From a virus (lineage: Duplodnaviria; Heunggongvirae; Uroviricota; Caudoviricetes), in IMG/VR virus record IMGVR_UViG_2684623127_000006: a stretch of DNA of 64,000 nt; one strand, 5' to 3'. Positions within the stretch are counted from its first letter, which is position 1. Each line of letters starts with the position of its first letter. The position numbers were made by a program, and so were the translations under genes. Positions 58,228 to 59,617 of the stretch are shown in pieces. The notes beneath the pieces were generated by a model. The model made no database searches and was not told the origin of the DNA. It saw nothing but the letters and a program-made list of their open reading frames with translations.

Positions 58228-58327
58228 ACCTTCCTCGGTTTAGTGTTTTTTTGCGAGTTTAGTGTTTAATAAACCATTAAGTCAAGTATTTGCTTGTTTA
58301 GTGATTACTAAAGATAATTACCACATG
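58228..58327. promoter_or_regulatory. divergent promoter/operator region with three GTTTAGTG repeats
   Basis: Motif at 58238, 58257, 58296; related motifs recur at 59259-59290. Confidence 0.45.
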
Positions 58328-58696
58328 CAAAAAAAAGAAATTCGCCGTTTACGTCTCAAGGAGTGGTTTAAAGATAAAACTCTGCCACCCAAAGAGAAGA
58401 GCTACCTATCTCAACTAATGAGTGGGAGAGCCTCGTTTGGAGAAAAGGCTGCCAGAAGAATAGAGCAAACATACGGGATGCCGGAAGGGTATCTGGATGC
58501 GGAATACGCAGAACAACCGGGGGGTTCTCCACCACATGCAGGGTTAACGTCTAATCAACTGGAATTATTGCAGATTTTTTCAGCCTTCCCTGAGGATGAG
58601 CAACGCCAGATAATCAGCGAGTTAAAGCAGAAAAAAGAATCAATGGAAGATCTCATAGCGAGATGGATTGCGGCGCAAAAATGCCGCCGCGCCTGA
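58328..58696 (+). CDS. HTH regulator (CI-like / PaaR-like) heading a three-gene TA operon
   Basis: 122-aa ORF from MQKKEIRRLRLKEW…, followed by antitoxin and ParE-like toxin. Confidence 0.5.
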   Translation, partial: QKKEIRRLRLKEWFKDKTLPPKEKSYLSQLMSGRASFGEKAARRIEQTYGMPEGYLDAEYAEQPGGSPPHAGLTSNQLELLQIFSAFPEDEQRQIISELKQKKESMEDLIARWIAAQKCRRA

Positions 58697-58716
58697 GTTA
58701 TAAAACCGGAGGAAAC

Positions 58717-58908
58717 ATGAATAGAGCCCTTTCACCAATGGTTTCTGAATTTGAAACCATTGAACAAGAAAACAGTTACAACGAATGGCTGCGTGCGAAA
58801 GTAGCAACGAGCCTTGCAGATCCGCGCCCAGCAATTCCCCATGACGAAGTTGAGCGCAGAATGGCAGAACGCTTTGCTAAGATGCGCAAGGAACGGAGCA
58901 AGCAGTAA
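58717..58908 (+). CDS. antitoxin (PaaA/ParD-like)
   Basis: 63 aa with GGAGG RBS; stop 1 nt before toxin start. Confidence 0.55.
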   Translation: MNRALSPMVSEFETIEQENSYNEWLRAKVATSLADPRPAIPHDEVERRMAERFAKMRKERSKQ

Positions 58909-58909
58909 A

Positions 58910-59188
58910 ATGTTACCCGTGTTATGGCTTGAAAGCGCAGATACCGACCTAGATGATATAACTAGTTATATTGCTCGTTTCGACATAGATGCGGCTGAAC
59001 GCTTATGGCAGCGATTAAGGGGTTGTGTGCTGCCGTTATCCGAACATCCGTATTTATACCCACCAAGCGACAGAGTACCTGGCTTGCGTGAGATTGTAGC
59101 CCACCCTAACTATATAATTCTATACCGCGTAACAACATCAAGCGTTGAAGTAGTAAACGTGATCCACGCAAGACGCCAGTTTCCCTAA
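58910..59188 (+). CDS. ParE/RelE-family toxin
   Basis: 92 aa MLPVLWLESADTDLDDI…YIILYRVTTSSVEVVNVIHARRQFP. Confidence 0.65.
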   Translation: MLPVLWLESADTDLDDITSYIARFDIDAAERLWQRLRGCVLPLSEHPYLYPPSDRVPGLREIVAHPNYIILYRVTTSSVEVVNVIHARRQFP

Positions 59189-59617
59189 CTTTCACTACCA
59201 ATAGAAACATAACAACCGCAACGACTTTATCAAAAGCGTTGTGTTTGTTATGTCCCGCGGTTTAGTTTTTACTTGACTTAAGTTTAATGTTTATTAAACT
59301 AAAAATACCAACCACCCCGCCCCACAGAACGCAGGGAAATACTTCGAGTTACCCGGCAGTGGTCAGGGGTTAAGTAGCCAGCCCGAGGCGTATGAACATG
59401 ACGGCAGGGTTCAACTTTAATAACTATGCAGCAGTTTTTTGTTCCGCTACCCCGGCGTTAAGGGGAAACAGAGGGTTTCTCAGTGGGCGAAGTCAAACAT
59501 CAGAATGGAAGGCATCCCGGGATCGGCAAAGAAGCAGCAATGGCGCTTTATATTGACATCAGCGCCATTGCAGGACAGGTAAGAGTTATCAGAGCGGTAA
59601 CTAAGCGGTATGCGCCT

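Follow-up and report, generated by a model that had tools for sequence, protein, structure and literature searches.

What kind of system occupies the immunity region of the second of the two tandem lambdoid prophages held by a 64,000-nt stretch of Caudoviricetes DNA (IMG/VR record IMGVR_UViG_2684623127_000006; this whole stretch is called the window below), and does the regulator encoded there serve a toxin only or the prophage as well? An earlier note, made from the letters of the sequence, had proposed for positions 58228-59300 a three-gene PaaR-PaaA-ParE-like toxin–antitoxin operon whose regulator might double as the prophage repressor. We identify the locus, at a probability of about 97%, as the paaR2-paaA2-parE2 (RAE2) operon in the immunity region of CP-933P/Sp12, a cryptic lambdoid prophage of Escherichia coli O157:H7, where a type II ParE toxin–antitoxin pair is set inside a lambda-like immunity switch. 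No observation spoke against this identification. The assignment of the operon to the immunity region of prophage 2 held up with this identification. The locus is already known in detail, and nothing in its operon, its operators or the role of its repressor is new. Published observations on it are taken below from Jurenas et al. 2021 (mBio, PMC8630535) and Prolic-Kalinsek et al. 2023 (PMC9986795).

Genes, proteins and genomic setting

The three genes lie on one strand (plus), in the regulator–antitoxin–toxin order of three-component paaR-paaA-parE systems, with gaps of 20 nt and 1 nt between them. The first gene, paaR2 (58325-58696), encodes a CI-analogue repressor of 123 aa, with an N-terminal helix–turn–helix (HTH) domain, a C-terminal oligomerisation region and no S24 peptidase domain. 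Its residues 1-66 agreed at 100% identity with PDB 7nkv/8c3k, entered there as ‘Phage repressor protein CI’; the deposited construct departs from native PaaR2 after residue 66, and the identity covers the N-terminal domain only. The longest open reading frame (ORF) of the regulator opens at GTG 58262; given that the gene is published as leaderless, with the N-terminal sequence MQKKE (PMC8630535), the actual start is ATG 58325.

The antitoxin gene paaA2 (58717-58908, with GGAGG at 58708-58712) encodes 63 aa, of which residues 2-63 were 100% identical to PDB 3zbe/5cw7/5cze; the ParE-family toxin gene parE2 (58910-59188) encodes 92 aa, all 92 identical to PDB 5cw7/5cze (‘Plasmid stabilization protein ParE’). 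The two genes meet at a TAA-A-ATG junction, and the description of a tight operon with a 63-aa antitoxin, a 92-aa toxin and a toxin start 1 nt past the antitoxin stop was thus borne out in each number. The cautious ‘like’ of the proposed name can be dropped as well, since the solved PaaR2, PaaA2 and ParE2 chains agree with the three proteins at every native residue.

Family searches recovered both the PaaA and the ParE family above the Pfam gathering score: PaaA2 was placed in PF21217 (PaaA2) with 70.7 bits versus a cutoff of 27, and ParE2 in PF05016 (ParE_toxin; ParE/RelE superfamily) with 60.9 bits versus a cutoff of 23, over profile positions 1-89 of 89. Further relatives of ParE2 in the PDB were the ParE toxins 3kxe and 6x0a (both E ~1e-5), 5ceg and 8c24. 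The Pfam scan found in PaaA2 no HTH, ribbon–helix–helix or other domain beyond the 33-position PaaA2 domain. Toxin fold and family (PF05016) are shared with the classical two-gene parDE systems (RK2 ParDE, Caulobacter ParDE1, PDB 3kxe, and Vibrio cholerae ParDE2), as is an antitoxin gene located upstream and tightly coupled; unlike in these systems, PaaA2 has no DNA-binding domain, control of transcription is left to a separate repressor and the prophage switch, and gyrase has not been demonstrated as the target of ParE2.

At the DNA level, a 2-kb segment around the operon (57400-59400) matched many E. coli O157:H7 chromosomes with 100% identity, and of 5426 complete E. coli genomes, 590 contained at least 80% of this query. 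The chromosome of O157:H7 strain H6437 runs colinear with the window (99.7-99.99% identity), and there the locus lies inside a lambdoid prophage adjoining ynfA; O/P-like replication genes come first, followed by ydaT, ydaS, the operon, ydfC, dicB, exonuclease, xis and a decayed int. Comparison with CP-933P of O157:H7 EDL933 (Sp12 in Sakai) detected no difference: the proteins (over the native residues of the solved chains), the 97-bp spacer, the operators, the PL933P hexamers, YdaS and YdaT all matched, and we regard the two as the same locus. The work of Sterckx et al. 2016 is said to concern this EDL933 CP-933P paaR2-paaA2-parE2 operon. A second paaR/paaA/parE copy, such as the CP-933M paralogue, was not found by tblastn in the 64-kb window (the best off-target hits had E-values of 0.25 to 1.4).

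The region is a well-studied case of a toxin–antitoxin pair captured by a prophage immunity switch: crystal and nuclear magnetic resonance structures exist for its five proteins, its promoters have been mapped, and footprints and a single-cell analysis have been published. The checks that the earlier note had proposed, namely alignment to PaaR2-PaaA2-ParE2, toxicity and rescue assays, and electrophoretic mobility shift assays (EMSA), done on the 97-bp region, are already in the literature. The main use of the locus here is calibration: system, operators and repressor role had been recognised from raw sequence.

Operators and promoters around the operon

Are the repeats on either side of the operon operators, and of which kind? 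Upstream, paaR2 diverges from ydaS (57925-58227, minus strand; 100 aa, HTH_XRE) across a spacer of exactly 97 bp, the OR region (58228-58324). Divergence from a cro-like gene had been proposed, and YdaS, the Cro analogue, matched PDB 8c7k (‘Phage antirepressor protein Cro’) over 100 of its 100 residues (E 1.5e-63), with Pfam YdaS_toxin and HTH_3 both above cutoff. The spacer holds four 18-bp palindromes (58238-58255, 58257-58274, 58276-58293 and 58296-58313), whose starts are spaced by 19, 19 and 20 bp. Those at 58257 (GTTTAGTGT/TTAATAAAC) and 58296 (GTTTAGTGA/TTACTAAAG) have two good arms; those at 58238 and 58276 have one good arm only. Two more palindromes, the OL set (59260-59277 and 59282-59299), lie beyond the operon and overlap the promoter PL933P. 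We see here the layout of a lambdoid immunity region: divergent repressor and cro-like genes, a spacer with four palindromes between them and further operators at a promoter of the PL kind.

The 8-mer GTTTAGTG was present in exactly three copies in the window (~1.2 expected), at 58238, 58257 and 58296, within a span of 66 bp; these are the upstream places that the earlier note had listed. Downstream, the copies each carried one mismatch: GTTTAGTT begins at 59260, GTTTAATG at 59282 (family D1 of the repeat table). The repeats are half-sites of the 18-bp palindromes, with GTTTAGTAA as the published half-site consensus. The suggestion of repeats flanking the operon in the manner of OR and OL was therefore right about the flanks, which are OR and OL, and in need of correction about the unit, which is a palindrome half-site and not a simple direct repeat.

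Both repeat regions are AT-rich (GC 0.31 and 0.27 versus 0.52 for the window), and one could take the repeats for a chance by-product of AT-rich intergenic DNA rather than operators. Matches to the 9-mer GTTTAGTAA with two mismatches allowed are indeed common across the window, 144 versus ~114 expected; this loose search was, however, too permissive. When all 18-mers in the window were scored against the perfect palindrome GTTTAGTAA/TTACTAAAC, only four reached the threshold of at least 14 of 18 positions (58257, 58296, 59260 and 59282), and all four fall into two stretches, neither of them longer than 76 bp. Composition-preserving shuffles within 500-bp blocks (n = 200) gave on average 0.2 sites of this kind per window, so that the observed clusters are far beyond chance; the confinement of the three exact copies of GTTTAGTG to 66 bp argues in the same direction. 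Published EMSA and DNase I experiments show PaaR2 (~78 bp protected) and YdaS bound to the 97-bp intergenic region, the footprints covering OR, and gfp reporters showed that both proteins repress the OL promoter (Jurenas et al. 2021, mBio, PMC8630535). A chance origin, already refuted by these experiments, is hardly credible, and we treat the palindromes as operators.

The same paper reports operators OR1-3 and OL1-3, together with promoter PL933P; the OR palindromes at 58238-58313 presumably correspond to the published IR1-IR4. A three-way MAFFT alignment of OR, in both strands, with OL gave no useful information, as the sites are palindromes at unequal spacings.

The promoter scan placed PR933P, driving ydaS-ydaT, on the minus strand at 58285-58256 (-35 TTGACT, 58285-58280; 18-nt spacer; -10 TAAACT, 58261-58256), and PL933P on the plus strand at 59273-59300 (-35 TTGACT, 59273-59278; 16-nt spacer; -10 TAAACT, 59295-59300), reading toward ydfC, dicB, exo, xis and int. 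The hexamers of the two promoters, TTGACT and TAAACT, are identical, and a perfect 12-nt inverted repeat (58277-58288 and 59270-59281; I7) joins their -35 regions. The identity of the hexamers has been published, along with a ~100-fold repression of PL933P by PaaR2 or YdaS in reporters; YdaS was found to bind OR and to repress PRM, PR and PL (PMC8630535).

The third promoter, PRM933P (58290-58325, plus strand), was missed by the scan, its -35 matching just 3 of 6 positions. We read its hexamers by eye from the published transcription start: -35 TTGCTT (58290-58295), a 17-nt spacer, -10 GATAAT (58313-58318) and +1 at the A of ATG 58325. Rapid amplification of 5′ cDNA ends has mapped both PRM933P and PR933P, with the PRM933P start at the paaR2 start codon (PMC8630535).

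Between the parE2 stop and OL we found an imperfect hairpin (59207-59253, plus strand; 22-nt arms, 3-nt gap, 82% complementary; I3). Its RNA fold reached -24 kcal/mol (z = -4.9), and 0 of 200 shuffles folded as well. As no U-run follows the stem directly, we do not claim it as an intrinsic terminator, and the terminator scan made no call at this place; the hairpin may end the operon as a terminator or serve to stabilise the RNA. The available portions of the literature on the locus contain no mention of it.

The immunity switch and the toxin–antitoxin pair

In the published account the parts of Cro and CII fall to YdaS and YdaT, PaaR2 is the CI-like repressor, and the switch they form is bistable, with two heritable transcriptional states (PMC8630535); PaaR2 ‘replaces lambda CI’ in the words of PMC9986795. 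A second role of the regulator as prophage repressor, offered by the earlier note as a possibility, is what Jurenas et al. 2021 (PMC8630535) concluded.

One could instead regard the operon as an autonomous three-component module, with PaaR2 as the split-off DNA-binding half of an antitoxin, autoregulating its own operon and not repressing the prophage. Hallez et al. 2010 (per PMC8630535) first described the locus as a three-component toxin–antitoxin system, a ‘split antitoxin’ was considered by the authors of PMC8630535 themselves, and the lack of a DNA-binding domain in PaaA2, with its single 33-position Pfam domain, would fit such a division of labour. PaaR2, however, represses PR933P and PL933P more strongly than its own promoter (PMC8630535), a result that largely refutes this reading; a second promoter, ~1 kb off and not part of the operon, also has operator-like palindromes, and paaR2 occupies the cI/dicA position, is leaderless like cI and has a weakly DicA-like C-terminus. 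We therefore consider the autonomous module very unlikely and continue with PaaR2 as the repressor of the prophage.

The weak likeness to DicA was seen in residues 72-119 (58538-58681), which matched the C-terminal part of the NCBIfam DicA subfamily model (E 1.4e-6). The score of 28 bits is far below the cutoff of 101, and PaaR2 is not DicA; the match hints at an oligomerisation module that the PaaR2 C-terminus may have in common with the Qin repressor. In K-12, Qin with its dicA-dicC genes lies at the same chromosomal site by ynfA, with dicB and ydfC downstream, and paaR2 stands in the position of dicA. Qin is not known to have a toxin–antitoxin pair after dicA.

The Pfam scan gave no domain match for PaaR2, hence no Peptidase_S24 and no autocleavage domain of the LexA/S24 type. 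For this reason we describe PaaR2 as a CI analogue in function that does not belong to the CI/LexA family, and the switch, unlike that of CI, as not SOS-inducible. The published data agree with this description: PaaR2 has no autocleavage motif, and there was no response to mitomycin C (PMC8630535).

On the far side of ydaS lies ydaT (57503-57928, minus strand), whose start overlaps the stop of the upstream ydaS. It encodes a CII-analogue transcription activator of 141 aa; residues 2-141 matched PDB 8bt1 (CP-933P YdaT) with E 7e-93, and Pfam YdaT_toxin was above cutoff. Prolic-Kalinsek et al. 2023 (PMC9986795) gave the YdaT operator the motif TTGATTN6AATCAA and placed it where ydaS and ydaT meet, and YdaT is reported to activate PRE933P, an alternative start for the operon (PMC8630535). 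The only exact match to this motif in the window was TTGATTTTCATGAATCAA at 57918-57935, precisely at the junction of the ydaS stop and the ydaT start; it is the high-affinity operator OM.

Put together, the switch works as follows. PaaR2, made from a leaderless mRNA begun at PRM933P, binds the GTTTAGTAA-type palindromes in OR (58238-58313) and represses PR933P, and with it ydaS-ydaT; at low dose it stimulates its own promoter, at high dose it represses it. It also represses PL933P at OL (59260-59300), ~1 kb away, and as PaaR2 forms octamers in solution, looping between OR and OL is plausible. Competition of YdaS with PaaR2 for the same sites yields the bistable switch, and YdaT, bound to TTGATTN6AATCAA at 57918-57935, activates PRE933P.

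The likeness to lambda is extensive. In both, PRM and PR diverge across an OR with several operators, further operators lie at PL, ~1 kb away and downstream of the repressor operon, the repressor mRNA lacks a leader, two accessory genes share the repressor transcript, and analogues of Cro and CII occupy the other side. The proteins of CP-933P, in contrast, have no sequence homology to CI, RexA or RexB; its OR carries four 18-bp palindromes rather than three 17-bp operators; YdaT is a POU-domain tetramer, structurally unrelated to lambda CII (PMC9986795); and its accessory genes are a ParE toxin–antitoxin pair, those of lambda an exclusion system.

How does the pair itself act? PaaA2 and ParE2 are co-transcribed downstream of the repressor, at the lambda rexA-rexB position. 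PaaA2, without a DNA-binding domain, wraps and neutralises ParE2 and is degraded by ClpAP and ClpXP; loss of the locus then frees ParE2, with nucleoid association and SOS induction to follow. These two effects make it probable that ParE2 poisons a topoisomerase. The outcome is post-segregational killing, making the immunity cassette addictive. Several of these steps are on record: Hallez et al. 2010, as summarised in PMC8630535, described the operon structure, repression by PaaR2, colocalisation of ParE2 with the nucleoid, SOS induction and degradation of PaaA2 by ClpAP/ClpXP, and the locus was shown to stabilise a mini-F plasmid through post-segregational killing (PMC8630535). During steady-state growth neither transcriptional state showed detectable ParE2 activity (PMC8630535). 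For that reason any role of the pair beyond addiction has the standing of a proposal.

The rexAB position, to which the earlier note had assigned the pair, is stated outright in PMC9986795, where paaA2-parE2 ‘replace rexA and rexB’. It invites the reading that the pair works mainly as a RexAB-like anti-phage defence, with ParE2 released on superinfection and abortive infection or exclusion, not addiction, as the result. The argument is one of position, the pair being co-transcribed with the repressor from PRM exactly at the rexA-rexB place; that paaA2-parE2 is expressed in both switch states (PMC8630535) would suit it too. Yet the pair has no homology to RexA or RexB and belongs to the PaaA2 and ParE families, and 0 of the 3 operon proteins matched any PADLOC defence model. 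The literature on the locus, in the portions available, reports no phage-defence phenotype; the published phenotype is post-segregational killing. We regard defence as an unlikely main role and keep addiction in that place.

Tandem prophages and neighbouring genes

Comparison of the two prophages of the window gives the boundaries of the cassette. They share 91% identity across ydaT (57573-57933 with 10039-10399) and 97% identity just beyond PL (59313-59468 with 11477-11632). Between these shared flanks lie non-homologous immunity cassettes, 57934-59312 in prophage 2 and 10400-11476 in prophage 1. The cassette of prophage 2 comprises ydaS, OR, paaR2-paaA2-parE2 and OL; prophage 1 has a YdaT homologue, a Cro-like gene and, at the repressor position, a 212-aa ORF (10712-11350) whose H6437 counterpart is annotated as ‘LexA family protein’, and it has no toxin–antitoxin pair.

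Conserved flanks around a non-homologous segment indicate that the switch and the toxin–antitoxin pair make up one heteroimmune cassette with recombination-competent flanks. The shared flanks also provide a substrate for exchange of immunity cassettes within the same chromosome, ~47 kb away. One could speculate that the pair guards the cassette, beyond plasmid stabilisation, either by killing recombinants in which the cassette has been replaced by that of prophage 1 or through release of ParE2 on superinfection (a RexAB-like abortive infection). The recombination guard has already been proposed (PMC8630535), and the cassette layout fits that proposal; if a guarding role were true, only the defence variant would be new. 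We hold such a role, in either form, to be improbable.

At 10384-10401, the cro-like/ydaT junction of prophage 1, we saw TTGATTTTCATGAATCCC, which departs from the YdaT operator at 2 positions; it fits with the 91% identical ydaT present there. Judging by these sequences, YdaT of one prophage may cross-talk with the other prophage.

Relative to H6437, the window has an insertion of ~1.3 kb at 53331-54637, absent from that strain. It carries 108-aa and 295-aa IS3-family transposase ORFs, looks like IS629 and, by position in H6437, interrupts a DUF977-family gene of prophage 2.

Downstream of PL933P, a gene on the minus strand (59618-59824) encodes a 68-aa CxxC...CxxC protein annotated as ‘ECs_2282 family putative zinc-binding protein’; it is followed by ydfC (59911-60129, plus strand) and then dicB.

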